The notes beneath the pieces are model-generated. The model ran no database searches and was not told the origin of the DNA. It saw only the letters and a list, made by a program, of their open reading frames with translations. From a virus (lineage: Duplodnaviria > Caudoviricetes), in the IMG/VR virus record IMGVR_UViG_3300009503_000396, positions 1 through 58,052 of that record: a DNA stretch of 58,052 bases; one strand, given 5' to 3'. Each line of letters starts with the position of its first letter. Within the stretch, counting starts at the first letter, position 1. This document shows, in pieces, positions 15,478 to 55,209 of this stretch. Made by a program: the position numbers and the translations under genes.

Positions 15478-15674
15478 GACGTTTGCTTCTCTCTCTTTTT
15501 CTTTTGTTTGCAAGTAGTGTTTGTCTAGGCATAGGTTGGAAAATTGGTTCATTGGTTCAAGAAGGACTTCTGCCTACAGTAGACTTCTTTGACAGTGTTA
15601 GTCTCTTGATAGTTGGTTTTGTCCTCTACTGTTACCATGTCTATCTAATTATCAAGTGGCCAACAGAACATTAG
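15444..15674 (+). CDS. small membrane protein
   Basis: Two hydrophobic helices; start uncertain. Confidence 0.45.
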   Translation: MDNSCHSLPSLRRLLLSLFLLFASSVCLGIGWKIGSLVQEGLLPTVDFFDSVSLLIVGFVLYCYHVYLIIKWPTEH

Positions 15675-15724
15675 TGAAATGTTTATATGAAATAACATTT
15701 GAGGTAATAGGATGGAGGACAGAC

Positions 15725-17284
15725 ATGGAACAAGTAAGAGATAAGATATTGTGTCAGATAGATGAAATAGAGAAGAACCTTTATGGCATGAGAGACATCA
15801 TCAAGATCTTCTGTCTCTCTAAAGCATGTGACTTGACTATTCTCTTGTTGGGTATCCATGCAACAGCTAAGTCTTCACTTGCTAGGTTATGGTCAATAAC
15901 CACTGGACTCAATTACCGTATAACCACCGCTTCGGAAGTTGATGAGTCACTTTTAGCCTATATTGATCCAGCCGTGTTCAGAGAGAGAAATATAGTACAG
16001 ATGAGAAGAGGAGAACTAATGGAGAAGAATCATGTAATCATAGATGAATATTTCTTATGGCCCAATAGGTTCAGAGCTAAGTTACATCAGTTGTTGGAAG
16101 AGAAGACATATGCTGGACTAGAATCACTTGTCTATACCTGGACATTCCTCTCCAATCCCCTGTCAGAGTACTATTCTGGCCAGATAGAAGACATAAACAT
16201 GGCAACAACAGACAGGATTGATCTCTTTGTCCCAGTTTACCAAGCTGCCATCGTTCCTAGTGAGACTATGATACGTAAATTCTCTAAATACGGAAGGAGA
16301 GAACGTCAACTTGATCAGATAACTACGTGGGATGATTACTTGAAAGCTAGAGAAGAGATAACCAGAGTTAATGTTCCTTCTAAGGTTATAATATGGTTGT
16401 CTCTGTTTGCACATGCACTTGCTGGTTGTAAACAAGTAAAAGAGAAATGGAATCTATCAAGAGCAAGAATGAAGAAGTTATGTGCCTCATGCAATGAAGT
16501 CAATCACCTCTGTGCGAAAGTATGCTTGTCAAAACCAAGGTTCTTGAGAGCAACTGTTATTCTTGCAAAAGGACTGGCATGGTTAAATGGACGAGACACA
16601 GTAACTCTTGAAGATGTACAAGAGGCTATCTATTATACACTTCCACACAGACTTGTGTGGATACAAGAAGAACTGTCTTATGAAGAGTCTCTGCAACGTG
16701 TGCCAGAACTCATCCAACAGTTCAATGATGACATGCTTGCATGGAAGAATAGAGGTATCTTCACTCAACTAGGAAAAGTAATTGAAGCTAGTAAGAAAAT
16801 ACCACCAGTCTATGAAGAGAAGGTAGGTCAAGACTTATTAGCTGATGTAGCAGAGATATTCCTTCTGAAACAATTTGTGTCAGAAACATTGGAAGCAATT
16901 AAACAGGATGTCTGTAACTTCTACAAACTAGAGGCCAAGAATCAGACATTCAAGACATTGAAAGAAGTAAGGCAATTCCTTGAGCAGTCTGGGTTGAATG
17001 CTTATGACAAGGAGATGTTGTTGTATGACATTGCTCCGTCTAATCTATCTTTGACACTTCCACTTGATCTCGATAGGTTAGTAACAGTGCTTGTTACCTT
17101 CCACAAACAAAACAAAGTCTCTATTGATCCTCAGAAGGTCTTGCTTCAAAGACTTGCAGAGAGTACAAGTTTTGATTCTGACCTTGTTAGACTACATGAG
17201 TACAATGGTTTGGTAAAGATTCTGTTCAATACAGAGAAGGACAAAGAACAGTTTGAACGTTTATGGGAGGGTCAAGATGTCTGA
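15725..17284 (+). CDS. MoxR/RavA-like AAA+ ATPase
   Basis: Walker A-like GIHATAKSSLAR, Walker B VIIDE, SNP sensor I, TDRI, lid AWLNGRDTVTLEDV...LPHRL. Confidence 0.8.
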   Translation: MEQVRDKILCQIDEIEKNLYGMRDIIKIFCLSKACDLTILLLGIHATAKSSLARLWSITTGLNYRITTASEVDESLLAYIDPAVFRERNIVQMRRGELMEKNHVIIDEYFLWPNRFRAKLHQLLEEKTYAGLESLVYTWTFLSNPLSEYYSGQIEDINMATTDRIDLFVPVYQAAIVPSETMIRKFSKYGRRERQLDQITTWDDYLKAREEITRVNVPSKVIIWLSLFAHALAGCKQVKEKWNLSRARMKKLCASCNEVNHLCAKVCLSKPRFLRATVILAKGLAWLNGRDTVTLEDVQEAIYYTLPHRLVWIQEELSYEESLQRVPELIQQFNDDMLAWKNRGIFTQLGKVIEASKKIPPVYEEKVGQDLLADVAEIFLLKQFVSETLEAIKQDVCNFYKLEAKNQTFKTLKEVRQFLEQSGLNAYDKEMLLYDIAPSNLSLTLPLDLDRLVTVLVTFHKQNKVSIDPQKVLLQRLAESTSFDSDLVRLHEYNGLVKILFNTEKDKEQFERLWEGQDV

Positions 17285-18612: not shown

Positions 18613-18836
18613 TGGGAGGGAAATACTTGGAGAAGATAGTCCTCAAATGCCCTCATTGTGGGCATCCTCTCAAAGTGAAGTATGTCAAAGATCCATTTGA
18701 GATAATCTACACATGTGAACACTGCAAAGGAGATTGGGAATGGACAGACTGGACTGAATACTTTGCTAGCCTAGAAAAGAAGTTCAATCCATCTAAGAAA
18801 GGAAGTGTCTTACATGAAAGTAAAGGTAAAGTGTAA
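18612..18836 (+). CDS. zinc-ribbon protein
   Basis: CPHCG...YTCEHC. Confidence 0.6.
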   Translation: MGGKYLEKIVLKCPHCGHPLKVKYVKDPFEIIYTCEHCKGDWEWTDWTEYFASLEKKFNPSKKGSVLHESKGKV

Positions 18837-19800
18837 GAACTGTGGATACACCTTTGAAGTAGACTTGAAACTTTCACCTCTTGGTCCTTTGAATCCAATA
18901 CAGAAGAGAGAGTTAGGACCTAAGATCAAGATTGATAAAGCATCACTTGACAAGATCTTGGACATAGCAAAGGGTGCTTCTTATGATGAACTAGAAAAGA
19001 TGGGTCTAGATATTCCTATTCCAGAATGGGAAGATGCACTGCAACGAGCAACAGTTAGACGCTTCTTGTTGGATAACTTGAAAGTAGCTAAGACCAAGAA
19101 ACGGAGAATGGGAGAGAAGTTTGTTACAGGCACTGAACCTTTCAGAATGGGAGATAGTTTCAAAGACATAAGTCTGCCAGCAAGTGAAGTAGCTAGCCTT
19201 GGTGTGGAAGATATTCGCCTTGTACCAGGTGTGACTCTCCAGAAGAAAGTCTTTGGGAGAACGAAAGGATATGATGTCGAAGAACTGAAAGGAACTAAGT
19301 TGTTGGTTATCTTGGATGGTAGTGGGAGTATGCTTGTTGGTCAAGAAGCAGATATGTCTGGAAAAGTAGGGAAAGCACTCATGATAGCTAAAGAACTCTA
19401 TGACTTGTCACAAAAGTTTGGATTTGAATATGATCTTGTTGTCTTCTCAGACTTAGCTATGCGAATACCAAGAGAAGACTTGAAAACATTCTTCAAAGAT
19501 ATTTCTTACAGAAACAACATGAGAATTTGGAATGGTGGTACACGTTTACGTAGAGGTCTTGAGAAGTTCACTGAGGCAGAGTACAAAGATGCTAATGTCA
19601 TTATCTTGTCAGACATGGAACTAGGTGACATATCAGAGACAAAGGATAAGATCATAGAAATAACTAAACTAACAAATAGCTTCAAGATAGTTCTAATTGA
19701 ACATAGTGACTATGACTTGAAACTGAGAGAAGACGCTACACGACAACTCTTTCCACCAGATGTAAACTTACAAGTATTAGCTATTCCAGTTAGAAGATAA
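18814..19800 (+). CDS. von Willebrand factor A domain protein
   Basis: MIDAS LLVILDGSGSM, VVFS, GGT, VIILSD; N-terminal CKNC. Confidence 0.85.
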   Translation: MKVKVKCKNCGYTFEVDLKLSPLGPLNPIQKRELGPKIKIDKASLDKILDIAKGASYDELEKMGLDIPIPEWEDALQRATVRRFLLDNLKVAKTKKRRMGEKFVTGTEPFRMGDSFKDISLPASEVASLGVEDIRLVPGVTLQKKVFGRTKGYDVEELKGTKLLVILDGSGSMLVGQEADMSGKVGKALMIAKELYDLSQKFGFEYDLVVFSDLAMRIPREDLKTFFKDISYRNNMRIWNGGTRLRRGLEKFTEAEYKDANVIILSDMELGDISETKDKIIEITKLTNSFKIVLIEHSDYDLKLREDATRQLFPPDVNLQVLAIPVRR

Positions 19801-19810
19801 AAATAGGTGA

Positions 19811-20026
19811 GTGAAGAAAAGAGAGTTGGTAACTATGGCTAGATTCAAAATGAAGAATGACTTCTATGAAGTAACAATCAAGAGTGCAAATATCAACAAG
19901 ATAGAAATAGAGATTGTGTTCTCGGAGAAGGAAATACCAGAACAAGAGATTCGAAATCTTGAACAATCACTACGACTCATCCTAGAAGCTTGTGGAAGGT
20001 TTACACCAAACCCTTCTAAAAGATGA
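19811..20026 (+). CDS. hypothetical protein
   Basis: ORF in array. Confidence 0.5.
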   Translation: MKKRELVTMARFKMKNDFYEVTIKSANINKIEIEIVFSEKEIPEQEIRNLEQSLRLILEACGRFTPNPSKR

Positions 20027-20493
20027 TCTGGATGTACACCTTCCAGAGATTTACTCCACGAATGAAGAAACAAGTTCTTCACTTCTTCGAGTCATTAAGT
20101 CTAGACACAAGAAAGAAGGCTAGTGTATCTGGAGTAGATGCCAACACATTGTACTTCAACTTCCGTCAGAACTGGAGAGAGAAGGTTGCTGTTGTGTTGT
20201 TGAAGGACACTGAAGTAATAGCTGTTGGAGAACTAAGTCCTTGTGCAGATGGTTATGAAATGCAGTCTGTATTCGTTAGAGATGATTTGCAACACAAAGG
20301 CATTGGTACAAAGTTAGTCAAATACCTCTTTGCTCTTTCTCTTTTGAATGGCAAGAGAATTATCTATGCAAGTGTCTTGAAAGACAATTACATTGCTTTA
20401 GACTTCTACAAGAAACTAGGCTTTAGGATAATAGGAAGAAATGAAATTGTTTATAAACTAGTTAAGAGACTTGACATGAGGGTGTATTCATGA
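20023..20493 (+). CDS. GNAT N-acetyltransferase
   Basis: VFVRDDLQHKGIGTKL (motif A); N..ALDFYKKLGF. Confidence 0.9.
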   Translation: MIWMYTFQRFTPRMKKQVLHFFESLSLDTRKKASVSGVDANTLYFNFRQNWREKVAVVLLKDTEVIAVGELSPCADGYEMQSVFVRDDLQHKGIGTKLVKYLFALSLLNGKRIIYASVLKDNYIALDFYKKLGFRIIGRNEIVYKLVKRLDMRVYS

Positions 20494-20720: not shown

Positions 20721-21138
20721 TTACTACATAGATGGTTCAAGTGCTGGTCTCTATGGTTACTATGAGACTCAGACGGGAAAAGCAGTCATAATTGAAGATG
20801 ACATGGAACTCACTAACAACCAAGCAGAATGGCTTGCACTCTATACCCTTGTTCTTGACTTGCCTGATGATTGGGAGGGCACAGTGTATTCTGATTCAGA
20901 ACTAGTAGTCAATCAGTTCAATGGTGAGTATGCTATTAGAGATCCAGAACTACGGAGAATAGCTAGACTAGTAAGAACTGTCTGTGAGAGTAAACACTTG
21001 AGACTTAGACTCATCTGGATACCAAGAGAAGCAAATGAAGCAGGAAAAGAAATAGAGAGAAGATTGGCAAGAAGAAGAGTTGCACGATGGTTGGCAGAAC
21101 AGGAAGGATTGTGTGGAGATGAAATCCCTCAGACATAA
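20707..21138 (+). CDS. rnhA: ribonuclease HI
   Basis: YIDGS, TNNQAEW, YSDSELVVNQ.NG.Y, WIPRE.N. Confidence 0.9.
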   Translation: MKPNNYYIDGSSAGLYGYYETQTGKAVIIEDDMELTNNQAEWLALYTLVLDLPDDWEGTVYSDSELVVNQFNGEYAIRDPELRRIARLVRTVCESKHLRLRLIWIPREANEAGKEIERRLARRRVARWLAEQEGLCGDEIPQT

Positions 21139-22645
21139 TGGAGTATACATTCCAACCTACTCACCAATAGGTCTGAGGATAAAGTTCAAAGGAAGAACAA
21201 TAGACTTAAGTGACGAAGCAGAGAACATGGCTGTTCAATTTGTCAAGAAGTTTGGTACTCCATATGTGGAAGACAAAGTCTTTGTGACTAATTTCTTGAC
21301 AGACTTCTCAAAGGCAATTGATGTAGACAAGGAAGAAGGATGTCTTGAACTTAAGAACTATGACTTCTCTGAGATACAACATTATCTAGAGGAAGTGAAG
21401 AAAAGGACAGAAGCAATGACCAAAGAAGAGAAGAAGTTGGCCTCTCATTTGAAGAAACTTGTCCGAGAAAGACTGAAGGAACAATACGGTTACGCCTATG
21501 TGGATGGTGTGAAGACACCACTCATGAACTGGGCAGTAGAACCAGCTAGTATCTTCATGAGCAAAGGAAACAATCCTCTAAGAGGAAGATGGAAGAGAGC
21601 AGTTAAGAAAGAAGAGATCGTGCTCAATAGTTCTGAACCAATGCCTGGATGGAAGACGGTGTGGGAACCAGAACAGATGTGGATAGCCAAGTGGCCAGAA
21701 GTCTTTGATCCTACAAGATACAAGTATGTGTGGTTACATCCATCTTCCTCTCTTCGACAAGAAAGGGAACAAGCTAAGTTTGACAAGGCATTGGAACTGG
21801 AACACAAGATCAACTTAGTCAAGGAATTCATCGAGAAAGAACTTTCCAGCAAGGATGAGACAAGAAGGAAGTTAGCAACTGTATGTTGGTTGATGATGCA
21901 TCTTGGGATACGAGTAGGAGATGAGAAGATCGCTGGAGAACGTGGGACGGTAGGATGTACTACACTGAAACCAAGCAATGTTATCTTGGAAGATGGCAAC
22001 AAGGTTGTCCTAGACTTCATCGGAAAAGACTTTGTTCACTGGCACAGAGAAATAGTAGTTCCTCAACAAGTGTATGAGAACTTAAAAGAGTTCAGGGAAT
22101 CTGCTGGAACAGACTTTATTTTCAAAGGACTCAACTCAGCTAAAGTTTCAAGATTCCTCAAGGAAGTTGTACCTGGATTGAGTGCTAAAGTCTTCAGGAC
22201 ATATCTAGCTGGTACTCTCTGGGACAGACATGCCAATGAGAATGCAAAGTATGTGTTTGATGATACACCAGAACATGTAAGGAAGTACTTGTTCAAGAAG
22301 ACAAATCTTGAAGTGGCAAAAGCACTCAACCACAAGAAGGCACTGCCAAAGAACTTCAGTGAGAGACTAGCAAAGAAAGAAGAACGTTTGAAGAAGGAAT
22401 ATGAGAAATTACTGTTGATACCACAAGACAAAACAGAGAAGTGGAGGAAACAGAGGATGAAAGTAGAAAAACTAGCTGCAGAACTAGAACTCATGAAAGA
22501 GACAGCCGAATGGAATTTGAACACATCTCTTACATCTTACATTGATCCTAGGAGAGTTCTTAAATTCTTAAAGAGGATAGAACTACCAGTTGAAGATGTA
22601 TACTCAAAAGCTTTGAGGGAGAAGTTCTCATGGGCTATTACTTAG
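21119..22645 (+). CDS. top1: DNA topoisomerase IB (eukaryote/Thaumarchaeota-like long form)
   Basis: SLRHNG, GIRVGDEK, TVGCTTL, DFIGKD, SAKVFRTY, LNHKK, TSLTSYIDPR (catalytic R-K-R-H-Y). Confidence 0.95.
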   Translation: MKSLRHNGVYIPTYSPIGLRIKFKGRTIDLSDEAENMAVQFVKKFGTPYVEDKVFVTNFLTDFSKAIDVDKEEGCLELKNYDFSEIQHYLEEVKKRTEAMTKEEKKLASHLKKLVRERLKEQYGYAYVDGVKTPLMNWAVEPASIFMSKGNNPLRGRWKRAVKKEEIVLNSSEPMPGWKTVWEPEQMWIAKWPEVFDPTRYKYVWLHPSSSLRQEREQAKFDKALELEHKINLVKEFIEKELSSKDETRRKLATVCWLMMHLGIRVGDEKIAGERGTVGCTTLKPSNVILEDGNKVVLDFIGKDFVHWHREIVVPQQVYENLKEFRESAGTDFIFKGLNSAKVSRFLKEVVPGLSAKVFRTYLAGTLWDRHANENAKYVFDDTPEHVRKYLFKKTNLEVAKALNHKKALPKNFSERLAKKEERLKKEYEKLLLIPQDKTEKWRKQRMKVEKLAAELELMKETAEWNLNTSLTSYIDPRRVLKFLKRIELPVEDVYSKALREKFSWAIT

Positions 22646-23251: not shown

Positions 23252-23259
23252 TTTATAAT
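23252..23259 (+). promoter_or_regulatory. putative TATA box
   Basis: TTTATAAT in an AT-rich gap before the amidinotransferase. Confidence 0.5.
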
Positions 23260-23281
23260 TAAAAAAGACAATGGAAAAAGT

Positions 23282-26110
23282 GTGACCTCAATGAAATTGG
23301 CAATGGTTGAACCAACTTATCTAAGTGCTAAAGTACCGAACAACAAATGGATGGAAGATATGACAGATGAAGAGAGACAAGTGAATCTGCCAGTAGCATA
23401 TCAACAATGGTTCAATTTATATTCCTTACTTACACAAGGAGCAACTGTCTACTTGGTACCACCAAAGCCACAGTATCAGGACCAATGTTATGATGGTGTG
23501 ACAGAGGTCTATACTAGAAGTGGTTGGAAGAAGTTTAAGGATGTCACTCTTGAAGATGAAATTTTAAGTCTAAACCCAAAGACATTGGAAATGGAATATG
23601 TTAGACCTATCAGAAAACAGGAATATCCTTATTCCGGCAAAATGTTTCATTTCATTGGCAAAGAAGTTGATTTAAGAGTTACAGAAGATCACAACATACT
23701 CTACCTTCACAGGGTTAAAGGACATCCAGATAAATACATCATTAGATTTGCAAAACCCTCAACATTACCAAAGAACTTAGGGTTTCCATCTAAAGGAGGC
23801 AACTTTACATTCTCAACCACTCCCAGTGAAATTGTTTTTGAGGAATATAGAGGAGAAAATGGACGAACATATCCAAAGAGAGTATTTAAAGCTGAAGACT
23901 GGTTCAGTTTTGTAGGATGGTATCTTTCAGAAGGATCTTCGGGTCAACATAACAAACATTACCATGTTTGCATATCACAAACAATCTATGCAGAAGAAAT
24001 CAAACAATTACTAGAACGAATGGATCTGCCATACTACTTTGATGGTAGAGATTTCGAAATTGCCGACAAAAGACTCTATGAATTCTTTAAACAATTTGGT
24101 AAAGCTGAAGAAAAATTTATTCCAAGAGAAATGCAGGATTCGATTTATCTTCCATATCTAATTGATAGTCTTTTGAAGGGAGATGGGAACAAAAGCAGAA
24201 CAGAATATTATACTAAAAGCAAACGCTTGGCCGATGACGTTCAAGCTGCTCTAATTAAATTAGGTTTCAGAGCAAACATCAGAAGAAATAAAGATGGAAG
24301 TTATGTGGTACATTTTTCCAAGAAGAATTCTTGGTGTCGAAACGTGATAGTTGAGGAAGTCCAAAATGAGATGGTCTATGATGTAACTCTGCCCAAGAAT
24401 CATATAATGCTAGTTAGAAGAAATGGTAAAGCAGTCTGGAGTGGAAACTGTTATGTTGTAAATGCAGGGATAGTTCTTCCACATCTACAGTTGTATCAAA
24501 ATAGAAATGTCTGTGTACTTAGCAAGTTCAAAGCTGAAGCTAGACCTGGAGAAGAATTAGAACTCAAGAAATTAGTTGAAGAACTAGGTTATGAAACATA
24601 TCAATGTCCATACTACTTTGAAGGTGAAGCTGAATGTTATGATGAGGAAACTGAAATTTTAACAGAGAAAGGTTGGAAATTCTTTAAGGATTTGGATGCA
24701 ACAGACCTAGTGATGACTTATGATCCCATTTCCAAGACTTTATATTTCCAGAAACCAATTGCTTACCAAAAATACTTTTTCGATGGTGAGTTAATTCGGT
24801 TGAAAAATAGATATATTGATGCTCTTGTTACTCCAGACCACAATGTATTTTTGAAGACTACAACAGGTAACCTTATGTTTGCAAAGGCATCTGTTCTACC
24901 AAAGAACTTTTATCTTATCATAACAGGTGTTTGGAAACCTCACAGAGAAGTTCGTGAAATAATTCCTGAATTTCTTAGAGATAAAATTTCTATAGAGACT
25001 TGGCTTAAGTTTTTAGGATGGTATCTTTCTGAAGGATATGTTAATTTCAACGAAGAAGCAGGCAACTATCAAATTTGGATCTGTCAAAATAGGAAAGCCC
25101 ATCCAGAAAAATATCAAGAAATAGAAGAACTTCTAAAGAACATGGGCTTTTCTGTTTCTCATGGAGAGAATGGTTTAATTGTTTACTCGAAAGAGTTAGC
25201 CCAGTACCTTAAACAGTTTGGTCAAGCTAATTCAAAGTTTATTCCTCAAGAAATCAAGCAACTTGATCCTTCTCTTCTAAGAATTCTGATCGATGCAATG
25301 ATGAAAGGAGATGGACATAATAGTAAGAAGTCAAAATATTATTCTACTTCATCAAAACAATTAGCCGATGATTTCCAAGAAATCTGTTTGAAATGTGGGA
25401 TCCCAGCATTTATAGGCTTTCAGTACAAAACTCTTAATGGGAAGACATTCTTAACTTACAGAGTTTATATCAGAAAAGCTAAACAAGAAACTGTTTTTCA
25501 CCAGTTTATTCCTGAAAAAGTCAGATATAAAGGATTTGTATACGATGTAACTGTTCCTGAAAATCATATTCTTTTAGTCAGAAGACATGGAAAGCCCTTC
25601 CTTAGTGGAAACTGTAAATGGCTTAATGAAAATGTCTACATTGGTGGGTATGGCATAAGGACTTCCAAGAGAGCCCATGCATGGTTGGAAGAACAGTTTG
25701 GGTGTAAGATAATTCCAGTTGAGACAGATGAGTGGTTGTATCACTTAGACTGCTTAGTATTTCCTATCAGCAATGACTACTGTATTATTTGTGAAGATAT
25801 ACCTCAAGACACTAAGGATCAGATAAAGAAGTATACAAATGTCATTGAAGTACCATACGACAACTGTCTTGAAGGAATAACTAACAGTTTTAGACTTAAT
25901 AGTTATGTCTTGAACGCTGATGTCTCAAAGAGTGTAACTGGAATGCAAGCACTGAAACAAATCAAGTCTGAACAACAGAAACTTACAGAGATATGTGCAG
26001 ATTTGGGTTTGACACCAGTATTCATTGACTTGTCAGAGTTCCTCAAGTCAGGAGCACTCCTCTCTTGCATGATACTTCATTTAACATGGGAGGAGTGTTG
26101 GTTAGGTTGA
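23282..26110 (+). CDS. amidinotransferase/guanidino-modifying (pentein) enzyme interrupted by two inteins
   Basis: Spliced exteins give A..QW..L, DQ-CYVVNAG, R.GE, FEGEAE, GxRT, YHLDC, EFLKSGALLSCM.LHL. Confidence 0.85.
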   Translation: MTSMKLAMVEPTYLSAKVPNNKWMEDMTDEERQVNLPVAYQQWFNLYSLLTQGATVYLVPPKPQYQDQCYDGVTEVYTRSGWKKFKDVTLEDEILSLNPKTLEMEYVRPIRKQEYPYSGKMFHFIGKEVDLRVTEDHNILYLHRVKGHPDKYIIRFAKPSTLPKNLGFPSKGGNFTFSTTPSEIVFEEYRGENGRTYPKRVFKAEDWFSFVGWYLSEGSSGQHNKHYHVCISQTIYAEEIKQLLERMDLPYYFDGRDFEIADKRLYEFFKQFGKAEEKFIPREMQDSIYLPYLIDSLLKGDGNKSRTEYYTKSKRLADDVQAALIKLGFRANIRRNKDGSYVVHFSKKNSWCRNVIVEEVQNEMVYDVTLPKNHIMLVRRNGKAVWSGNCYVVNAGIVLPHLQLYQNRNVCVLSKFKAEARPGEELELKKLVEELGYETYQCPYYFEGEAECYDEETEILTEKGWKFFKDLDATDLVMTYDPISKTLYFQKPIAYQKYFFDGELIRLKNRYIDALVTPDHNVFLKTTTGNLMFAKASVLPKNFYLIITGVWKPHREVREIIPEFLRDKISIETWLKFLGWYLSEGYVNFNEEAGNYQIWICQNRKAHPEKYQEIEELLKNMGFSVSHGENGLIVYSKELAQYLKQFGQANSKFIPQEIKQLDPSLLRILIDAMMKGDGHNSKKSKYYSTSSKQLADDFQEICLKCGIPAFIGFQYKTLNGKTFLTYRVYIRKAKQETVFHQFIPEKVRYKGFVYDVTVPENHILLVRRHGKPFLSGNCKWLNENVYIGGYGIRTSKRAHAWLEEQFGCKIIPVETDEWLYHLDCLVFPISNDYCIICEDIPQDTKDQIKKYTNVIEVPYDNCLEGITNSFRLNSYVLNADVSKSVTGMQALKQIKSEQQKLTEICADLGLTPVFIDLSEFLKSGALLSCMILHLTWEECWLG
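23486..24448 (+). mobile_element. intein with LAGLIDADG homing endonuclease (321 aa)
   Basis: Starts CYDGVTEVYTRSG; VTEDH; GWYLSEG; LLKGDG; ends VYDVT...WSGN before Cys. Confidence 0.92.
24635..25612 (+). mobile_element. intein with LAGLIDADG homing endonuclease (326 aa)
   Basis: Starts CYDEETEILTEKG; VTPDH; LGWYLSEG; MMKGDG; ends LSGN before Cys. Confidence 0.92.
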
Positions 26111-26883
26111 TGCATCTAAAAGACTGGTTGGCATCAGAAGAAGTCCAACGAATAAGGAGAATGAGTTGGAAAGATATTCTTGAGAAAGAGTTCAATAGAA
26201 ATCCAATTAGACCTATCAAGTATTCTCCCACTGCCTTTTATGCTCCAAATGATGGTGTAGTGCTACACACGAAAGTGGTTAAGTCGGATGAAGAATACAT
26301 CAATGTGAAAGGAAGGAAACTTACAGTACAAGACCTTCTTCAAGACAAGAAGTACAACGAAGAAAGTCTTGTGATTGGTATCTTCTTGACTGTATATGAC
26401 ATGCACTATTCAAGAATGCCAACAGATGCTATCATCAGATGCACATGGAAAGAAGTAGAAGGTATCTCTTCAGGAATGTTCAATCTAGAGAGACTAATTA
26501 TTGGAAAAGGAACTATTGATGTCAATCTTGAAGACTATTTGTTTAGCAATGAAAGATGGGTCTTTGAATGTGCTAACTTGAGACATGACTTCAAGTACTA
26601 CATAGTACAAGTGGCAGATGTGGATGTAAACATCATATTGCCCTATATCAAAGACAAATGGACATTCAAGAGACAAGGAGAGACATTCAGTTTTGTGACT
26701 TATGGTAGTCATACAGAGATTATAATTCCTATTAAGTATGCTCCTAAACTCTTAATACCACAAGACGATATCTACCATGTAAGTACATCGGATGTACTGG
26801 TAGAGTTCGGAGGGAAGGAAGGTGCACAAGCACAAAGTGTCAGAAACAAAGACAAGAAGTCTTCTAAAAGCTGTAACAGCTAG
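26110..26883 (+). CDS. phosphatidylserine-decarboxylase-like pyruvoyl enzyme
   Basis: F.R.P.R, APNDG.V, IGIFL..YD.H..R.P, NER, VQVA, G..F..V.YGS (self-cleavage motif). Confidence 0.8.
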   Translation: MHLKDWLASEEVQRIRRMSWKDILEKEFNRNPIRPIKYSPTAFYAPNDGVVLHTKVVKSDEEYINVKGRKLTVQDLLQDKKYNEESLVIGIFLTVYDMHYSRMPTDAIIRCTWKEVEGISSGMFNLERLIIGKGTIDVNLEDYLFSNERWVFECANLRHDFKYYIVQVADVDVNIILPYIKDKWTFKRQGETFSFVTYGSHTEIIIPIKYAPKLLIPQDDIYHVSTSDVLVEFGGKEGAQAQSVRNKDKKSSKSCNS

Positions 26884-27094
26884 AGTATTGGAAGTTTTTG
26901 TAGATACACTGTTGCTAGGAACTATCTATTCATTCTTTGGCATTCATTCTCCTTACGAACTAGCTTTAGGTCTTTCTCTGTTGATAGAGTTCTTATGTGC
27001 TGTTGCAACATATATTAATGAGAGATTGTGGAATAAAATACAATGGGGCAGAGAAGTAGAGGATGTCTATGAAGACAGAACCAAAGACTCTTGA
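26822..27094 (+). CDS. DUF2061-family membrane protein
   Basis: ETxxRSLLKAVTxR...Y.NERLWNKI.WG. Confidence 0.75.
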   Translation: MHKHKVSETKTRSLLKAVTARVLEVFVDTLLLGTIYSFFGIHSPYELALGLSLLIEFLCAVATYINERLWNKIQWGREVEDVYEDRTKDS

Positions 27095-27531: not shown

Positions 27532-28158
27532 ATGAGAAAAGTAAAAGTACAGACTGAAGAGGTCAGCTATCCTTGCCCACGATGTGGCAACTTTGAGAAA
27601 CCGTATATGTATTCGAAAGATGGCTATGCTTACATGCTCTGTTCTAAATGCCATACTCAGTACAAGACATCTACAGCAGTCAGTGCCAATTTCCGAAAGT
27701 TCTGTTCGAAAGTAGGGAGTAAGCCTAATCGTAGTCCCACATACTACACATCATCTGAAGAGAAAGTACGGAGATTCTTGCTACGAAGAGGATTGTTAGA
27801 AGGACTAGACTTCTTCCACAATGCTCGTATTGGTCCATTTGTGAATGGGAGCAAGAGAAAAGTCTACTATTGGATAGATTTTGTTGTACCTTCTAAAAGA
27901 TTACTTATTGAATGTAGTCCAAGCATTTGGCACAAGATGTGGAATCGTGAAGAAGCGGACAAACGTAAGAATCAATTAGTGGAACAGCTTGGTTGGACAA
28001 TAATTCATCTTGATGAGAAAGAACTTAATCAACTAAACAAGAAGAGGAAGAAATCAAAGTATCCGAAGACTGACAATGTGAAGAAACTCTATCAATTGTT
28101 TGGCTGTACAGAAGAGTATGAAGTAACAGATGAAAGAAATCGAGAAAAAGGTCAATAA
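27532..28158 (+). CDS. zinc ribbon plus DUF559/Vsr-like PD-(D/E)xK endonuclease
   Basis: CPRC..CSKC; SSEEKV..L, YWIDF......IEC...WH, D..KN..L...GWTII. Confidence 0.7.
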   Translation: MRKVKVQTEEVSYPCPRCGNFEKPYMYSKDGYAYMLCSKCHTQYKTSTAVSANFRKFCSKVGSKPNRSPTYYTSSEEKVRRFLLRRGLLEGLDFFHNARIGPFVNGSKRKVYYWIDFVVPSKRLLIECSPSIWHKMWNREEADKRKNQLVEQLGWTIIHLDEKELNQLNKKRKKSKYPKTDNVKKLYQLFGCTEEYEVTDERNREKGQ

Positions 28159-30328: not shown

Positions 30329-30361
30329 GTCCTACATTAATGAAAGAAAAGGAGGTTGTGT

Positions 30362-32371
30362 ATGGAAATAAGATCTGGTGTTGTACTGGATGCGAAAGAA
30401 TCTGAGATTCCTGTGATTGTTCTGGAAAAGAAGAAAGGAACAGACTATGGAGAAATCTGTTTCATGGGCGACTGGCACTTAGGTTGTCAACCAGCTAATT
30501 CCTTAGTAGGTCTGGGTACAAGAATACAAGATGTGAGAGTTGGTGACTATGTAGGACAAGGACAAGTTCTAAAGACTTACAAGAGAGAGCCAAAGGAAGG
30601 AGAAAAACTTTATACATTGTTCATTACTGGGCTTCTTCCACTTAAGTTCACTGGGAATCATCCACTTCTAATAGCAAGAGGGAGAGGAAAGGCAAAACAT
30701 GGAGGAGTCTACATTAAGCCTGAGATAGAGAATTTTGCATTTGTCAGAACTGAAGATGCCAAAGTTGGTGACTGGGTTCTTCTTCCCAAGCTCCCTGAAG
30801 AACAGATGAAGATCTACCTACGACCTCAAAGGACTTGGCACAACCATACAGAGCTTACAGTTGACGAAGAAATAGCTAGATTCCTTGGATTTTATGTTGC
30901 TGATGGATATGTACATCGAAGCAGCATAGTTCTTTGTTTCAATCCTAAGAAGGATGGTAAGTTAATCAACAAATATAGAACAATTATAGAGAAAAGATTT
31001 GGACGGAAATGTACACTTGACAAGAGAGGACAACTAAGTTTCTCTTTTAAAGCATTGGCTGAATATCTCAAGAATCTAGGCAAGGTGAGGACAAAACGTG
31101 TTCCTCTGGAGATCCTTTATTCTCCTCGGCACATTGTTGAAACATTCTTAGAAGGATACATTGACGGGGATGGTTGGAAAGTTAGAAATGAATACAGAGC
31201 CACAACTGTTTCTGAAGTGCTAGCATATCAACTAAGTCTTCTTTCACCTAAAATTGAAAAGCTAATCACTATCCAGGCCTATGAACCTAAGAGACATATA
31301 TGGCCTAATGGCAAAATGTATCGTGAACACAAATGTTATCACATTTCTATCCCAATTGAGAGAAAGAAACAACGATACGGAGTCCTGAAAGAAGGACTAA
31401 CATTACGTATCGAAGATATCTTCGTGGAACCGCTGAGAGAGCCTGTGTATAACTTAACTACAACTTCCAATACGTACTATGCTCCAATTATAGTTCACAA
31501 TTCAGGTAATTTCTCTCTTGGACAATACATAGAGTACTTAGCTTATCTACTAGAACATCCTGAAATAAAAGTAGTTCTGATGGGAGACTTGATAGAAATG
31601 GGTGCATTGAGTCCTTATGGTGCTTCAGAAGAGAAAGTAGGCTCAATGCAGTTACTTGATGTTATCAGATTGTTAGAACCAATCAAAGACAGAATAATAG
31701 TCATGTTAGAAGGAAACCATGAAGAGCGTTTCTGGAGAGCAACAAAAGGGACAGATACAGTAACCAAGTCTGTTGCAGATGCTCTGAAAATACACCCTCT
31801 CTTACCAGGTCCAGAGAGAGGACAACTCTTCATGGTCAAAGTAGGAGAACAAGTATATTCTGTTTATGCTATTCATGGATCAACTGGTGCAACTATTTAC
31901 AAGGCAACACAATTAAGCAAAGTCTTTGCTAATATCCACACATCTCTAGCTGTACACGGACACAATCATCAGATATTCAAAGATCACAGAACATACTATG
32001 GAGTACGAGAGATAAAAGGAAAGTACTATCTAACAGTGCATGAACAGTATTGGTTGACAACTGGATGCTTTGTGAAGAACTTAGGGTATGCAGAGAAAGG
32101 AGCAATGCCAGTGACGAAGATAGGAGCACCATTTGTCAGATTCTATGCAAATCGTGAAGCTATTGAGATTATTGATGATCCAAGAATAACCTATGGAATA
32201 GGAACTGGGTCAAAGAAGATAGACTTGAAGAAGATAGGTTTGAAAGGGTTAGACTTGGAAAAGTACGAAGAACTGAGAGGATTTGGTGGCACACAAGTCT
32301 TGAAGAAAGGACGATGGGTGGAAACTGAGATATGTCCTTCTGTAGAATTGGATACGAAAGAGGAAGCTTAG
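30362..32371 (+). CDS. calcineurin-like metallophosphoesterase with intein
   Basis: GDWHLG | S, MGDLIE, GNHE, IHG, GHNH. Confidence 0.9.
   Translation: MEIRSGVVLDAKESEIPVIVLEKKKGTDYGEICFMGDWHLGCQPANSLVGLGTRIQDVRVGDYVGQGQVLKTYKREPKEGEKLYTLFITGLLPLKFTGNHPLLIARGRGKAKHGGVYIKPEIENFAFVRTEDAKVGDWVLLPKLPEEQMKIYLRPQRTWHNHTELTVDEEIARFLGFYVADGYVHRSSIVLCFNPKKDGKLINKYRTIIEKRFGRKCTLDKRGQLSFSFKALAEYLKNLGKVRTKRVPLEILYSPRHIVETFLEGYIDGDGWKVRNEYRATTVSEVLAYQLSLLSPKIEKLITIQAYEPKRHIWPNGKMYREHKCYHISIPIERKKQRYGVLKEGLTLRIEDIFVEPLREPVYNLTTTSNTYYAPIIVHNSGNFSLGQYIEYLAYLLEHPEIKVVLMGDLIEMGALSPYGASEEKVGSMQLLDVIRLLEPIKDRIIVMLEGNHEERFWRATKGTDTVTKSVADALKIHPLLPGPERGQLFMVKVGEQVYSVYAIHGSTGATIYKATQLSKVFANIHTSLAVHGHNHQIFKDHRTYYGVREIKGKYYLTVHEQYWLTTGCFVKNLGYAEKGAMPVTKIGAPFVRFYANREAIEIIDDPRITYGIGTGSKKIDLKKIGLKGLDLEKYEELRGFGGTQVLKKGRWVETEICPSVELDTKEEA
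30485..31501 (+). mobile_element. intein with LAGLIDADG homing endonuclease (339 aa)
   Basis: Starts CQPANSLV; FTGNHP; LGFYVADG; FLEGYIDGDG; ends VYNL...IVHN before Ser. Confidence 0.92.
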
Positions 32372-33633: not shown

Positions 33634-34826
33634 AATTGAATAAGTCTCCATTCACTGAACGTTTCTTGAAGAAAGCATATGAAGAATACAGAGAGCCAGG
33701 ACTGTTCTGGGCATCACTTACACTCTTGTCTTCTTGTTTTGTAGTTACTAGACACAAATGGTTGTTGATGAAATTTGGATCTTCTGGTGTTGGTAAGACA
33801 ATAAGTGATAAAGTAGCAATAGAGACATTTGGAAGTAGCCTTCATCCTCTAGTGATCTCTGGTAGACTTACACCTGCAGGAATGGCAAAAGTAATGAAGA
33901 AAGCAGAGAATGACAAAACAGCAAAAGAACATCTAGAGAAGTTCAGAAGGGCTAAACTGATATTCGTTGAAGACTTATCCCGTTGTACTACTCACTACTT
34001 GAAACTGACATCTCTTCAGTTCTTAGCTGGTCTAACAAAGACAACTCTCTTAGATGACTTGACTTCTGAAGGAGGGACTTTTGGAGGTAATCTGGGAGAT
34101 GAACCAAAGAAGAGCATGGTAGCTGGAACACCATCTGACTGGGAAGAAATTTCTAGTACTTCTTTGTACAATGAGTTTATTGACAGACGTTCATTAACTG
34201 CTATAGCACTTATGTCTCCAAAAGAATGGGCTGTACGTGAACAATTAGCAAAACAGACAACAGAGACAAAGGAAGATTGGCAAATAGTTCTACACTGGAA
34301 AGATATGATCTACAGTACAGACATACCGACTTACTATGGTCCTATGTTGGAACCTGTTTTTGGTCCACACAGGGACTCACTGTATGAGAAACTAGCAGCA
34401 TTCAAACACTTTCCTGAGAACGTACTGTACATGGTTGACTCATTGGCAGAAGGACATGCTAGACTTAATGGAAGAAACCAAGTAGGACCAGAAGACTATG
34501 AAGCAATAGAGAAACTGTTCTCAAGATTCCTGTTGTTGGCTGACATGAAGAAGAAAGAACTCTACATCGTAGAAGAATTGTGTAAGTCTCATGGAATGTT
34601 GACATTAGAAGAACTCACATATAGACTTAGGAAGAGAGCAAAACGTGAAGATCTACCAGACCTAGAAGTGGTACAGAAGACAATTTGTAACTATGCAGAA
34701 GCATCAAAGTACCTCAGTAAGACACGTGCATCACATAACAAGCCTGCATATGTCATGTTGTCTAATTATCTAAGAAGCATCTTCAATACATGGGATAAAG
34801 AAGTAAAGGAAGTGATAACGAAATGA
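33630..34826 (+). CDS. AAA+ ATPase, MCM-like core with C-terminal wHTH-like domain
   Basis: GSSGVGKT, SGRLTPAG, IFVEDL, FIDRR, AEGHARLNGRNQV..EDY. Confidence 0.65.
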   Translation: MKLNKSPFTERFLKKAYEEYREPGLFWASLTLLSSCFVVTRHKWLLMKFGSSGVGKTISDKVAIETFGSSLHPLVISGRLTPAGMAKVMKKAENDKTAKEHLEKFRRAKLIFVEDLSRCTTHYLKLTSLQFLAGLTKTTLLDDLTSEGGTFGGNLGDEPKKSMVAGTPSDWEEISSTSLYNEFIDRRSLTAIALMSPKEWAVREQLAKQTTETKEDWQIVLHWKDMIYSTDIPTYYGPMLEPVFGPHRDSLYEKLAAFKHFPENVLYMVDSLAEGHARLNGRNQVGPEDYEAIEKLFSRFLLLADMKKKELYIVEELCKSHGMLTLEELTYRLRKRAKREDLPDLEVVQKTICNYAEASKYLSKTRASHNKPAYVMLSNYLRSIFNTWDKEVKEVITK

Positions 34827-35500
34827 AAGAAGCAGTCATTTTATGTGGTGGACAAGGACTGAGGTTGAAAGGACACATTGATGTGCCCAAACCATTTCTG
34901 ATCATAGATACAGAGACTGGTGAAACTCTCCTTGAGGCACAACTGAAGTGGTTGTTGGCATATAACTTTGAACATGTCATTTTAGCTATCTCACGAGAGA
35001 ACTACAAGTACATGAGAATAAACTACTCTAGACTTATGACACTCCCGTGGTTAGATCCATCTATTGAAGATGAGTATTTGGGTACTGGTGGTGCTCTAAG
35101 GAAAGCATTGGACTTTGTGGAAGAGAAGAACTTCTATGTTATGAATGTAGATGACATTTGTTCTTATAATCCAGATGAGTTGTACAATGCACAGAGGACT
35201 AGCAATGCAATACTCATCAAACAAGCAAGGTTGCCCTTTGGTGTAGTTGAGGTTGGACCAGACATGAGAGTAATAGACTTTGTAGAGAAACCAATGATTA
35301 GTAAGTATGTCTCATGCGGACATTATGTCTTCAACAGAAAGTTAGTTGAACAGTTCTTGCCAACAGAAGGAGACTTAGAACAGACACTGTTGAGAGAACT
35401 AGCAAAACAAGGATTATTGTATGCTCATGTCCTAACTGGCAAATGGATAACAATAAACACGTTCAAAGACTTGTTGGAAGCAAGGAGAAGTTTGAAATGA
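34823..35500 (+). CDS. sugar-phosphate nucleotidyltransferase (NTP_transferase)
   Basis: AVILCGGQGLRL...PKP, LGTGGAL, MNVDD, FGVV, FVEKP. Confidence 0.92.
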   Translation: MKEAVILCGGQGLRLKGHIDVPKPFLIIDTETGETLLEAQLKWLLAYNFEHVILAISRENYKYMRINYSRLMTLPWLDPSIEDEYLGTGGALRKALDFVEEKNFYVMNVDDICSYNPDELYNAQRTSNAILIKQARLPFGVVEVGPDMRVIDFVEKPMISKYVSCGHYVFNRKLVEQFLPTEGDLEQTLLRELAKQGLLYAHVLTGKWITINTFKDLLEARRSLK

Positions 35501-37140: not shown

Positions 37141-40100
37141 GTGATTTGCTTGTATGTCATTAAGAGAGATGGGAGAAAGGTCTCTTTCGAAGAAGAGAAG
37201 ATACGAAAAGCAATAACAAAAGCAGCTGCTTCTGTAGGAGAAGTTGATAGACAGAAGATCAATGAGATAACTAAAGCAGTGTTGCAGAAGCTAACAAAAG
37301 AAACAATAAGCGTGGAAGAGATACAAGACAAGATAGAAGAGACTTTAGTACAGTTCAAAGAGTACAAGATAGCAAAGGCTTACATCCTTTATCGACAGAG
37401 AAGAACCAATGCCAGAAGACTAGCTGCTTCCCTTGGTGTGAAGGATGACTTGAAACTGCCAACATCTGCACTAATTGTACTGTCTAAGAGATATCTATTG
37501 AAGGATGAGAAAGGAAGAATAAAAGAGACACCAATGAAGTTATTTAGAAGAGTAGCAAGGGCAATAGCACAAGTAGATGAACAGTATGGTGCTTCTAGCA
37601 AAGATGTACGTAGATTAGCTGGACAGTTCTATGACTTGATGACACAAGGATATTTCCTACCTAACTCTCCAACACTGATGAATGCTGGAGCACCACTTGG
37701 ACAGTTGTCAGCATGTTTTGTCTTGCCAGTGCATGACTCTCTTGATTCTATCTTCTTGACACTATATCATACTGCCAAGATACATCAGACTGGTGGAGGA
37801 ACTGGATTTAACTTCTCTGCTCTCAGACCGACTGGTGATGTGGTGAGAACAACTGGTGGGGTAGCATCTGGTCCAGTGTCATTCATGAGAGTATATGATG
37901 CTGCTACACAAGAGATCAAACAAGGAGGTAAAAGAAGAGGAGCTAATATGGGTATTCTGAATGTTGACCATCCAGACATTCTAGAGTTCATAACTGCTAA
38001 GTCTAGAGGAGGATTAGAGAACTTCAATATCTCTGTTGCTGTTACGGATAAGTTCATGAGAGCAGTACAGTCAGGAGAGACAATACCACTAGTTAATCCA
38101 AGGAACAAAGAAGTCGTACAAAATGTACCAGCTAGAGCAATATGGGACTTGATAGTAGCAGAAGCATGGAGATCTGGTGATCCAGGTCTTCTCTTCTTGG
38201 ACACTATCAACAAGTCTAATTCAAATGTAGTACCAAAGTATGGACCTATAGAAGCTACTAATCCATGCTTAAGTGGAGAGACGTGGACAATGACAAGTAA
38301 TGGTCCTAGGAGGATAAGAGATTTACTTGGGAAAAGGAACCTTGAGCTTATTGTGCAAAATTGTCCATGGCTAAGCCCTGATGGTTTCTTCGAAAGTGGG
38401 GCAAAAGAAACAGTAGAAATCCTAACTAAAGAAGGATTCTCGTTTAGAGCTACACTTGACCACCATGTATTTACTGCCGATTTTAGAAAATTGCAAGTGC
38501 GAGACTTGAAGCCTGGAGATAAACTGAAAATCTCAAGAGGTAAAGGAAAATGGTCTGGAAGATATGGATTTGAAGAAGGATATCTACTTGGTTTGCTCTA
38601 TGGGGATGGAACTCTCACACCTGAGCCTGCACTGTATTCCTGGACCACTGAAGAAGGTTCTAGGGAAGTAAGACAATTAGCTTTCAAGTTTGCTTCTAAA
38701 CTCAAGCATAGGAAAGACTGGAAAGGTTGGCAAAAACCAAACAAGGCTTCGTGTACAAAGATGGCAGTCAGAGGCCTAAGAACTCTTTTAAGAGAGCTGG
38801 GGCTTGAGAATAGGAAGTGCATAACTCCACAAATGGAAGAAGCAAGTCCAATGTTTTATAGAGGATTCTTGCGAGGGCTCTTTGACACAGACGGATCAGT
38901 GCAAGGTACCCAAGAAAAGGGTGTCTCCATTCGGCTAGCTCAACGTGATTTTGCCTTTCTCCAGGCTGTACAAAGAATGCTCCTTAGACTGGGCATTTTC
39001 TCTAGGATCTACAAGAGAAGAGACAAACACTTGCAGAAGTTCAAAGGAAAAGTCTATACCTGCAAAGAACAGTTCGAATTAATTATTTCCAATGAGGACT
39101 TACTTTTATTCAAGGAAATGATCAACTTCACAAATTCAGCTAAGGAAAGGAAGCTAAGAGACCTCTTAGTCCGATACAAGAGAAGATTGAATAAATCTAG
39201 AGACACAGTTACATTTATTGGCATCTCTAATCCGAGAAAAGAACCGGTGTATGACATACAGGTCCCTGGGTTAAACCAATTAGAGGCTAATGGAATAGTA
39301 GTTGGCAACTGTGGAGAATTGCCATTGTATCCATATGAGTCTTGCAATCTTGGTTCAATCAATCTATCTAAGTTTGTGAAGATGAACAAAGAACCACACA
39401 TTGACTGGGAGAGACTAGAACAAGTTGTTAGACTAGCAGTACATTTCCTTGACAATGTCATAGATGCAAATAAGTTTCCATTGCAAGAAATAGAGGCAAT
39501 GACAAAGAAGATACGAAGAGTTGGATTGGGCGTAATGGGTTGGGCTGATCTATTGATTGCACTGAACATAGCATACAACTCACAACAAGCACTGGACTTA
39601 GCTGCTGAAGTGATGAAGTTCATAACAGAGAAAGCAAGAGATGAGTCTGTCAGACTAGGAGAACAGAGAGGAAGTTTCCCAGAGTTCAAAGACTCAATAT
39701 GGCCAAAGAGAGGATACAAGACTTTACGTAATGGAACAGTTACATGTATTGCACCTACTGGGACCATCTCTATACTAGCTGGTTGCTCTCCAGGAATAGA
39801 ACCATTGTTCTCAATTGTCACTGTTAGAGACTTGGAAGAGTCACTAGGTGCTAAGCTGGTAGATATCAATCAAGCATTTGAGAGTAGAGCTATCAAAGAA
39901 GGATTCTATTCTGAAGAGTTGATGGACAAGATAGCAAGAGACTTCTCTATTCAGAAGATACCTGAGATACCAGAAGAAGTGAAGAGAGTCTTTGTAACAG
40001 CACATGACATATCACCAGAGTGGCATGTGAAGATGCAAGCTACATTTCAGATGTATACTGACAATGCTGTCTCCAAGACTGTCAACTTACCATTCACAGC

Positions 40101-49938: not shown

Positions 49939-49939
49939 C

Positions 49940-55205: not shown

Positions 55206-55209
55206 GAAA

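Follow-up and report, generated by a model that had tools for sequence, protein, structure and literature searches.

The stretch of DNA examined here, referred to below as the window, is the whole of IMG/VR record IMGVR_UViG_3300009503_000396: 58,052 bp, with a completeness estimate of 33% and with all of its sizeable genes on the plus strand. Judged by its gene content, the virus is a large archaeal virus. Side by side on the plus strand it carries a gene for a pentein-superfamily enzyme split by two inteins (23282-26110) and a gene for a soluble pyruvoyl-enzyme proenzyme of the phosphatidylserine decarboxylase (PSD) family (26110-26883; 257 amino acids (aa)). The TGA stop codon of the former overlaps the ATG start codon of the latter in a TGATG (26108-26112), an overlap that a first-pass annotation of this DNA had read as translational coupling and that is present as described. 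We characterize this cassette and its relatives in viruses and bacteria, and tentatively suggest that it converts arginine to ornithine and ornithine to putrescine.

The first gene encodes a precursor of 942 aa, in which Pfam recognizes LAGLIDADG_3 (E 4e-13), Intein_splicing and, on the C-terminal extein, DDAH_eukar. Orthologue starts point to the ATG at 23291 (MKLAMVEP...) as the likely true start codon. The closest characterized relatives, as shown below, are ArgZ (Synechocystis Sll1336) and AgrE (Anabaena Alr4995; structures 6jv0 and 6lrf for the two), whose residue numbers are used for comparison. The precursor divides into five segments, all on the plus strand. The N-extein (aa 1-68, 23282-23485) contains an NNxWM motif and closes with QDQ, which corresponds to AgrE Asp65. 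Intein 1 (321 aa, aa 69-389, 23486-24448) starts with CYDG, contains a VTEDH TxxH block and LAGLIDADG, and ends in SGN with a Cys at position +1. A middle extein of 62 aa (24449-24634) carries YVVNAG, with the equivalent of AgrE Asn71, RPGEE, and FEGEAE, corresponding to the region of AgrE Glu118. Intein 2 (326 aa, aa 452-777, 24635-25612) starts with CYDE, contains VTPDH and LAGLIDADG, and again ends in SGN followed by Cys. Finally, the C-extein (165 aa and the stop codon, 25613-26110) contains GYGIRT, the catalytic His (LYHLDC) and the catalytic Cys (GALLSCMIL).

Both LAGLIDADG copies have an N-terminal Cys, a TxxH block, a C-terminal Asn, a +1 nucleophile and an endonuclease domain, and intein-free alleles exist with a precise junction; the penultimate residue is Gly, where His is usual, ahead of the terminal Asn. 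The two inteins are 35% identical to each other. The exteins sum to 295 aa (68, 62 and 165), and the computed spliced protein is 81% identical over its full length to the intein-free orthologue of related locus L003, with one gap and with junctions that align exactly. The intein-free alleles of loci L002, L003 and L005 span the junction of intein 1 in the alignment. The gene is thus interrupted by two LAGLIDADG inteins, both predicted to splice. The first-pass annotation had seen two homing inteins in a pentein with intact His and Cys motifs, and was right on both counts: Pfam signatures and the intein-free relatives agree on the inteins, and LYHLDC and LLSCMIL are found in the exteins. It had gone on to suggest that two inteins mark a conserved and needed gene. 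Taken alone this argument is weak, since at least five open reading frames (ORFs) of this virus bear intein or LAGLIDADG signatures; it is strengthened by the sites of insertion, both of which lie in invariant active-site motifs, just past QDQ and just past FEGEAE.

A profile of the pentein family searched against PDB sequences retrieved ArgZ and AgrE as sole matches (E 1e-34). The structural model of the enzyme (predicted local distance difference test score (pLDDT) 96.6) superposes best on the N-terminal domain of ArgZ, with template-modelling scores of 0.81/0.88, a root-mean-square deviation of 2.4 Å and E 3e-22. Weaker fold matches are DDAH (about E 1e-13), and amidinotransferases and agmatine deiminase (E 1e-9 to 1e-11; about 1e-9 for agmatine deiminase 6b10); the top 49 fold matches listed are all penteins. 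His174, Cys283, Asp67, Glu126 and Glu128 are invariant among 54 pentein sequences and are found in the window exteins. Likewise, the window protein keeps the equivalents of AgrE Asn22, Asp65, Asn71, Arg90, Glu118, Arg139, His168 and Cys264, positions that vary little or not at all among 54 homologues. The Asn71 equivalent, Asn73 in the numbering of L002, is conserved at 90% or more and lies in the window motif YVVNAG. By its modelled fold and its Cys, His and acidic residues, then, the window protein is a member of the pentein superfamily.

Which pentein it resembles most bears directly on its substrate. Like ArgZ and AgrE, the viral enzyme has the catalytic Cys, His and acidic residues and Asn71. 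In AgrE, Asn71 is reportedly required for the second hydrolytic step; this is consistent with the title of a PDB entry in which ArgZ(N71S) is described as holding an intermediate of the reaction in covalent linkage. The equivalents of Arg90 and Arg139 presumably bind the alpha-carboxylate of the substrate. The viral protein differs from ArgZ and AgrE in being about 24% identical to them, in standing alone at 295 aa, where they have a fused ornithine-cyclodeaminase-type domain, and in being paired with a decarboxylase; the window copy is further split by its inteins. DDAH also belongs to the pentein superfamily, is of similar size and is the automatic annotation of many homologues of the viral protein. 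The DDAH_eukar match is borderline, however; for PF19420, the window precursor scores 23.3 bits against a cut-off of 23 and an intein-free orthologue 20.1. The enzyme is structurally nearer to ArgZ than to DDAH, the profile search finds no DDAH, and the residue at the ArgZ Asn71 position is Asn. It also misses the cut-off of the model for Mycobacterium tuberculosis DDAH (NF045659, 85.9 bits versus 300). By its nearest relatives in sequence and structure, and with the Asn71 equivalent kept, the pentein is most likely of the ArgZ/AgrE type, its substrate being assigned by homology.

The decarboxylase matches PF02666 at 71.1 bits (cut-off 22, E 1e-19). Its highest 19-residue hydropathy is 0.89, so that it has no transmembrane segment. 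Asp48, His99 and Gly199-Ser200 are conserved and represent the Asp/His/Ser self-cleavage triad and the Gly-Ser motif of the family. The Gly199-Ser200 codons (26704-26709, plus strand) encode a TYG/SH motif that is near-invariant in 60 family members and is the predicted self-cleavage site; we take it to correspond to the LGST-type motif of PSDs. Upon cleavage between Gly199 and Ser200, Ser200 would become the pyruvoyl group. The structural model (pLDDT 88) matches the folds of E. coli PSD (7cnw, E 1.5e-6), of PsiD (8x4q, E 6e-5), which acts on tryptophan, and of the Aspergillus oryzae arginine decarboxylase (9jer and 9jf5, E 1.7e-3). The latter two are soluble pyruvoyl enzymes of the PSD fold, as the viral protein is predicted to be, and act on free amino acids; they differ from it in being fungal, 350-380 aa long and 13-14% identical to it. 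To our knowledge, neither is paired with a pentein.

Does the enzyme simply make a membrane lipid, as an ordinary archaetidylserine or phosphatidylserine decarboxylase independent of the pentein? It shares Pfam family, fold, the Asp/His/Ser triad and the Gly-Ser motif with E. coli PSD, databases label its relatives 'phosphatidylserine decarboxylase', and a passage of an ocean-virus survey (PMC11360552) places viral psd in the phosphatidylethanolamine pathway. However, it is 15-17% identical to E. coli PSD, lacks a membrane-binding segment, and falls far below the NCBIfam equivalog cut-offs for lipid PSD and archaetidylserine decarboxylase (at best 44 bits versus 225 and 37 versus 230). When 1.84 billion representative proteins were searched with the decarboxylase profile, 245 matched at E <= 1e-3, the best 150 of which are mostly about 240 aa long; this describes a small distinct subfamily rather than the bulk of lipid PSDs, and one that almost always adjoins a pentein gene, as described below. 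We therefore regard a plain lipid enzyme as hardly probable at all. On this point our results side with the first-pass annotation, which had noted a PSD-like enzyme lacking an obvious membrane anchor and had named a plain archaetidylserine decarboxylase as the finding that would overturn its proposal.

The nearest Atlas clusters of the decarboxylase are 93-96% viral. In a quick tree, the window protein and its relatives group on a long branch, and 53 of 54 cellular sequences fall in one supported clade. Some members of the subfamily carry additional domains. One (P0156, 390 aa) joins the decarboxylase to the anti-CBASS phosphodiesterase Acb1; another (P0163, 1114 aa) joins it to a VapB-like region and an ADP-ribosyltransferase exoenzyme domain; a third (P0166) contains a LAGLIDADG intein within the decarboxylase. 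Among the best 150 representatives listed for the family, none is fused to a pentein domain.

The association of the two genes extends well beyond the window. In all near relatives (72-76% identity) the pentein gene is followed by the decarboxylase gene, and these penteins are intein-free; several of the loci duplicate one another and hence represent about four independent relatives. In two of them (L003 6539-6829 and L004 3129-3419), a 96-aa ORF with no family match lies between the two genes, breaking the translational coupling, and a further one (L006) holds the C-terminal 166 aa of the pentein alone, upstream of the decarboxylase. For a wider sample, a 12-sequence decarboxylase alignment retrieved 220 viral contigs from IMG/VR, of which the best 80 loci were examined. 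The same database yielded no match to the window decarboxylase used as a single query, and one locus when an alignment of close relatives was used. A pentein gene lies directly upstream of the decarboxylase in 77 of the 80 loci, with an overlap of about 10 nucleotides; in the other three, the decarboxylase starts less than 45 nucleotides from the contig end. Genes for the gp23 capsid protein, the prohead protease and PhoH recur around the pair, which identifies these viruses as T4-like myoviruses; the pair itself is flanked by the capsid gene and phoH.

Among deposited phage genomes, the decarboxylase occurs in 45 of 50,697 records, 39 from Campylobacter phages and 6 from Bacteroides phages, and the pentein in 47, comprising 40 Campylobacter and 6 Bacteroides phages and one weak match in Ralstonia. 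In Bacteroides phage DAC19 the two are adjacent (genes 243 and 244), in the viral order. In Campylobacter phage CPX, a Fletchervirus, about 93 kb separate the two, the pentein being flanked by the gp41 primase-helicase and the gp45 clamp and the decarboxylase located beside GroES and a homing endonuclease. In Fletchervirus phages, the decarboxylase gene overlaps at its 3' end with the gene for this Hef-type endonuclease (CPX; L009 6728-8173), and the separation of the pair in CPX may be the outcome of endonuclease-driven rearrangement.

Fletchervirus phages have unusual DNA bases. Together with the position of the CPX pentein among replication genes, this raises the question of whether the pair acts in nucleotide or viral DNA modification, with an amino-acid-derived group attached to a base or reshaped on it; in the window, a nucleoside 2-deoxyribosyltransferase, a ribonucleotide reductase and an HD-domain protein are encoded near the cassette. 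The broader sample speaks against this. No hydroxymethylase, kinase or transferase of the hypermodification type is linked to the pair in the 80 viral loci, the T4-like copies have the structural setting described above, bacterial copies are accompanied by exporters rather than by DNA enzymes, and the pentein retains the residues expected for binding a free amino acid. We consider a role in DNA modification very improbable.

Using the same alignment, we retrieved 148 matches in contigs from a set of one bacterial or archaeal genome per species, and again examined the best 80 loci. Isolates with a decarboxylase match belong to Xenorhabdus, Streptoalloteichus, Nocardia, Saccharopolyspora, Allokutzneria, Saccharothrix, Streptomyces and Candidatus Glomeribacter, and metagenome bins include Verrucomicrobiales, Acidobacteria, Sulfurimonas and Gammaproteobacteria. 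The pentein adjoins the decarboxylase in 75 of the 80 bacterial loci, and in one more it is cut by the contig end. Of the remaining four, one is cut with no visible pentein, and three lack a pentein gene within 5 kb, with a masked stretch in one of these. Gene order is the reverse of that in viruses, the decarboxylase preceding the pentein, with the viral order in one locus, a contig from a Saccharibacteria bin. Neighbourhood analysis, which the first-pass annotation had proposed as a check on its pairing of the two genes, thus finds the pair strongly conserved in viral and bacterial loci alike.

We propose the following scheme, in which we infer substrate, step order, product and viral benefit from sequence and models. 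The first gene would be translated as the 942-aa precursor, and both inteins would splice out, yielding a mature ArgZ/AgrE-type enzyme of 295 aa. This enzyme would hydrolyse L-arginine, through a covalent Cys intermediate, to L-ornithine, two NH3 and CO2. The translationally coupled second gene would yield the soluble PSD-fold proenzyme, which would cleave itself between Gly199 and Ser200 to generate its pyruvoyl cofactor and would then decarboxylate ornithine to putrescine. The net reaction would convert arginine to putrescine, two NH3 and two CO2, and the infection would gain both a polyamine and the released nitrogen. Conversion of arginine to putrescine by way of ornithine is the reading that we favour, and we put it forward tentatively. 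The choice of ornithine as the compound handed over is supported by a parallel with AgrE, whose dihydrolase reportedly passes ornithine to a fused ornithine-using domain; the decarboxylase would take the place of that domain. A polyamine link is weakly suggested by a PotD-like spermidine/putrescine-binding protein (E 1e-51), which belongs to a neighbour family present in nine of the 80 bacterial loci, the representative locus being from Verrucomicrobiales. If the pentein performed a single hydrolysis, N-carbamoylputrescine would result in either order of the two steps; with full hydrolysis, both orders would give the same net product.

The two enzymes may also form a complex. The predicted complex scored 0.54 (0.54, 0.30 and 0.55 in separate runs), and the best of three controls 0.00. 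In calibration, 58 of 80 solved complexes and 2 of 110 mismatched pairs came up to this mark; those that did so with a score of 0.60 or under include just 7 of the 80 solved complexes, but both mismatched pairs. At least 96% of contacts are shared between runs, and the pLDDT of the partner is at least 85. The prediction lends weak support to a complex of pentein and decarboxylase.

Several observations weigh against the conversion of arginine to putrescine via ornithine. The pentein misses the NCBIfam cut-offs for arginine dihydrolases (NF052232 and NF052231, 82.7 bits versus 450 and 83.2 versus 1025), and its score against the M. tuberculosis DDAH model is on a par with that against the arginine-dihydrolase model (86 versus 83 bits); because 83 bits compare with a cut-off of 450, we have spoken of an ArgZ-like enzyme and not of an ArgZ. 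The roles given here to Asn71, Arg90 and Arg139 are presumptive. Neither SpeD nor spermidine synthase was found in 19 viral records bearing the cassette, six of which are at least 90% complete. The sole solved PSD-fold enzyme for a basic amino acid is an arginine, not an ornithine, decarboxylase, and the order of the steps could thus be reversed. All five bacterial genomes checked encode at least one other decarboxylase of the Orn/Arg/DAP type (two of the five also have one of the OKR type), so that these bacteria may have other ways to putrescine than the operon, and four of the five have matches to the spermidine-synthase family. The neighbours of bacterial copies fit an exported specialized product as well as they fit putrescine: MATE transporters are a neighbour family in 44 of the 80 loci and MsbA-like ABC exporters in 14, and in all eight bacterial loci that we list gene by gene, an exporter gene (five MATE, three MsbA-like ABC) lies directly 3' of the pentein gene. 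Finally, that some decarboxylase family members are joined to Acb1 or to an ADP-ribosyltransferase domain hints at a role in virus-host conflict.

These last observations raise the alternative that the product is a different small molecule derived from arginine, exported by bacteria and used by viruses in conflict, be it as a signal, an antimetabolite or a means of counter-defence. Exporter neighbours, the conflict-related fusions and the viral character of the nearest Atlas clusters agree with it, and the presence of other basic-amino-acid-type decarboxylases in the five genomes makes the operon look accessory. Yet no third biosynthetic enzyme is conserved beside the pair, whether viral or cellular, two arginine-acting enzymes allow few products, no pentein fusion or extra domain indicates another substrate, and putrescine is itself a cation that cells export. 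We rate this alternative as rather unlikely, while keeping it in view. A more far-reaching version, which we find quite unlikely, is that the pair is an unrecognized mobile metabolic module, shared by archaeal viruses, marine T4-like phages, gut Bacteroides phages, Campylobacter phages and many bacteria, whose product is an arginine-derived conflict amine rather than a housekeeping polyamine. Bacteria would export this amine through dedicated MATE or ABC pumps, and viruses would produce it in the infected cell so as to disarm or reprogramme their host, which would fit the Acb1 and ADP-ribosyltransferase fusions.

Alternatively, the product may be as we propose and the order of the steps reversed: a PSD-fold arginine decarboxylase would make agmatine, which the pentein would then convert to putrescine or N-carbamoylputrescine. 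The A. oryzae arginine decarboxylase is among the fold matches and the bacterial gene order, decarboxylase then pentein, would suit this sequence of reactions. The fungal match is weak, though, at E 1.7e-3 and 13% identity, and the likeness of the pentein to ArgZ and AgrE (E 3e-22) far exceeds that to agmatine deiminase. The equivalents of Arg90 and Arg139, which we presume to hold the alpha-carboxylate, are also invariant or nearly so. A precedent exists in chlorovirus PBCV-1, whose polyamine set, as given in passages of PMC9992855, comprises arginine decarboxylase, agmatine deiminase, amidohydrolase and homospermidine synthase, and so also pairs an arginine decarboxylase with a pentein. The same passages describe phage pyruvoyl ornithine and arginine decarboxylases derived from SpeD. 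These systems resemble the window cassette in making putrescine-type amines from arginine, in the joining of a decarboxylase with a pentein in PBCV-1 and in the pyruvoyl chemistry of the phage enzymes; they differ from it in using a decarboxylase of the alanine-racemase or SpeD fold with a pentein of the agmatine-deiminase type. Overall, the reversed order seems to us unlikely.

The first-pass annotation had described an unknown two-step pathway leading to a polyamine or guanidino-amine, or to the modification of lipid, glycan or DNA. A conserved pair with a non-membrane PSD-like enzyme bears out the first part, and a polyamine is the product that fits best; modification of lipid, glycan or DNA finds no support in our analysis.

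The same annotation had delimited an operon with its own TATA box and a third gene. A TATA-like element, TTTATAAT (23252-23259, plus strand), is indeed present in the 63-nucleotide gap 5' of the pentein gene. This exact 8-mer occurs once in the window, where 2.5 copies are expected, and is thus not over-represented; a looser TATA-like motif lies 15-50 nucleotides 5' of 4 of 31 gene starts, compared with 2% of random positions. An archaeal-type promoter belonging to the pentein gene is therefore plausible, the word itself not being enriched. The proposed third member, a DUF2061 membrane protein, is not confirmed. The 90-aa ORF in question (26822-27094, plus strand) has hydrophobic segments (hydropathy maximum 2.1) and overlaps the non-conserved tail of the decarboxylase gene. 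It has no Pfam or NCBIfam family match, DUF2061 did not appear in a Pfam hmmscan even at E <= 10, and a direct search of the record with PF09834 left it unmatched. Its nearest Atlas clusters in a language-model feature search are DUF2061 (score 0.86), a result at the level of a lead, so that the ORF is possibly DUF2061-like. As tblastn found no match to it in six related loci (L002-L006 and L008), we place it outside the conserved unit.

The remainder of the window gives some context for the virus. Its replication and repair genes encode a eukaryote-type topoisomerase IB, a RadA/Rad51-like recombinase, an ERCC4 nuclease and a family B DNA polymerase; others encode a ribonucleotide reductase with an ATP-cone and an intein, ClpP, a nucleoside 2-deoxyribosyltransferase and a glycosylation cluster. 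The topoisomerase (21080-22645) is full-length, with N, core and C domains, and is closest, among named proteins, to ones from metagenome bins of archaea: it shares 61% identity with a protein of one Archaeoglobaceae bin, about 50% with proteins of Nitrososphaeria bins and 42-47% with those of Bathyarchaeota and Aenigmarchaeota. The glycosylation cluster (47764-57832) comprises four group-1 glycosyltransferases (two of them intein-bearing), a double family-2 glycosyltransferase, a UDP-glucose/GDP-mannose dehydrogenase and an FkbM methyltransferase, and a nucleotidyl transferase is encoded at 34823-35500. A MoxR-like AAA+ ATPase (AAA_lid_2, bpMoxR; 15656-17284) and a VWA-domain protein (18805-19800) are encoded two genes apart, the customary MoxR-VWA pairing, here in a virus. 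LAGLIDADG or intein-splicing signatures occur in five window ORFs (23282-26110, 30356-32371, 37141-40233, 47764-49938 and 50193-52553), the carriers being the pentein with its two inteins, a 671-aa ORF past ClpP, the ribonucleotide reductase and two group-1 glycosyltransferases. With at least six elements per 58 kb, the intein load of this virus is unusually high.

Closer to the cassette, a GNAT acetyltransferase (20023-20493, 3 kb 5' of it) was considered as a polyamine acetyltransferase and rejected, as it scores 28 bits against a PaiA model with a cut-off of 250, a weak generic similarity. An ORF for a zinc-ribbon protein with a DUF559/MTES_1575-like endonuclease lies 3' of the cassette in the window (27532-28158) and 5' of it in two relatives (L003 3653-4171, L005 2173-2688). 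The window and relative copies are 55-61% identical, and their placement on opposite sides shows that the neighbourhood has been rearranged. The relative that holds locus L002 is a 120.7-kb record with direct terminal repeats and a completeness rating of 100%. In it, the cassette is directly followed by a 350-aa ORF on the minus strand (L002 7963-9015), which may be a mobile-element gene.

No paper on the pentein-decarboxylase pair was found in the literature searched, whose coverage leaves most subscription journals outside. The main text of PMC9992855 contains none of the terms 'phosphatidylserine', 'amidinotransferase', 'dihydrolase', 'Campylobacter' or 'Bacteroides', and in the main text of two further polyamine papers (PMC13625781 and PMC10407285), 'phosphatidylserine', 'dihydrolase', 'PSD' and 'amidinotransferase' do not occur. 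In passages of the ocean survey PMC11360552, psd and amidinotransferase are separate entries, the former assigned to lipid (phosphatidylethanolamine) synthesis and the latter to the synthesis of creatine. Both enzyme superfamilies are known; the pair as a pathway and the substrate of its PSD-fold partner appear to be undescribed.

Since cultured phages that infect Bacteroides thetaiotaomicron and Campylobacter jejuni carry the pair, as do culturable bacteria such as Xenorhabdus and several actinomycetes, the question of its product is directly testable. Annotation may need correction, as pipelines now label the two genes 'phosphatidylserine decarboxylase' and 'amidinotransferase/DDAH'. If our proposal is true, the cassette would represent an undescribed way of making putrescine, or a related amine, from arginine with two enzyme types not previously known as partners, and the PSD fold would gain another non-lipid substrate. 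Carried by bacterial and archaeal viruses alike, this route would add to the polyamine and nitrogen-mobilizing functions that viruses encode.

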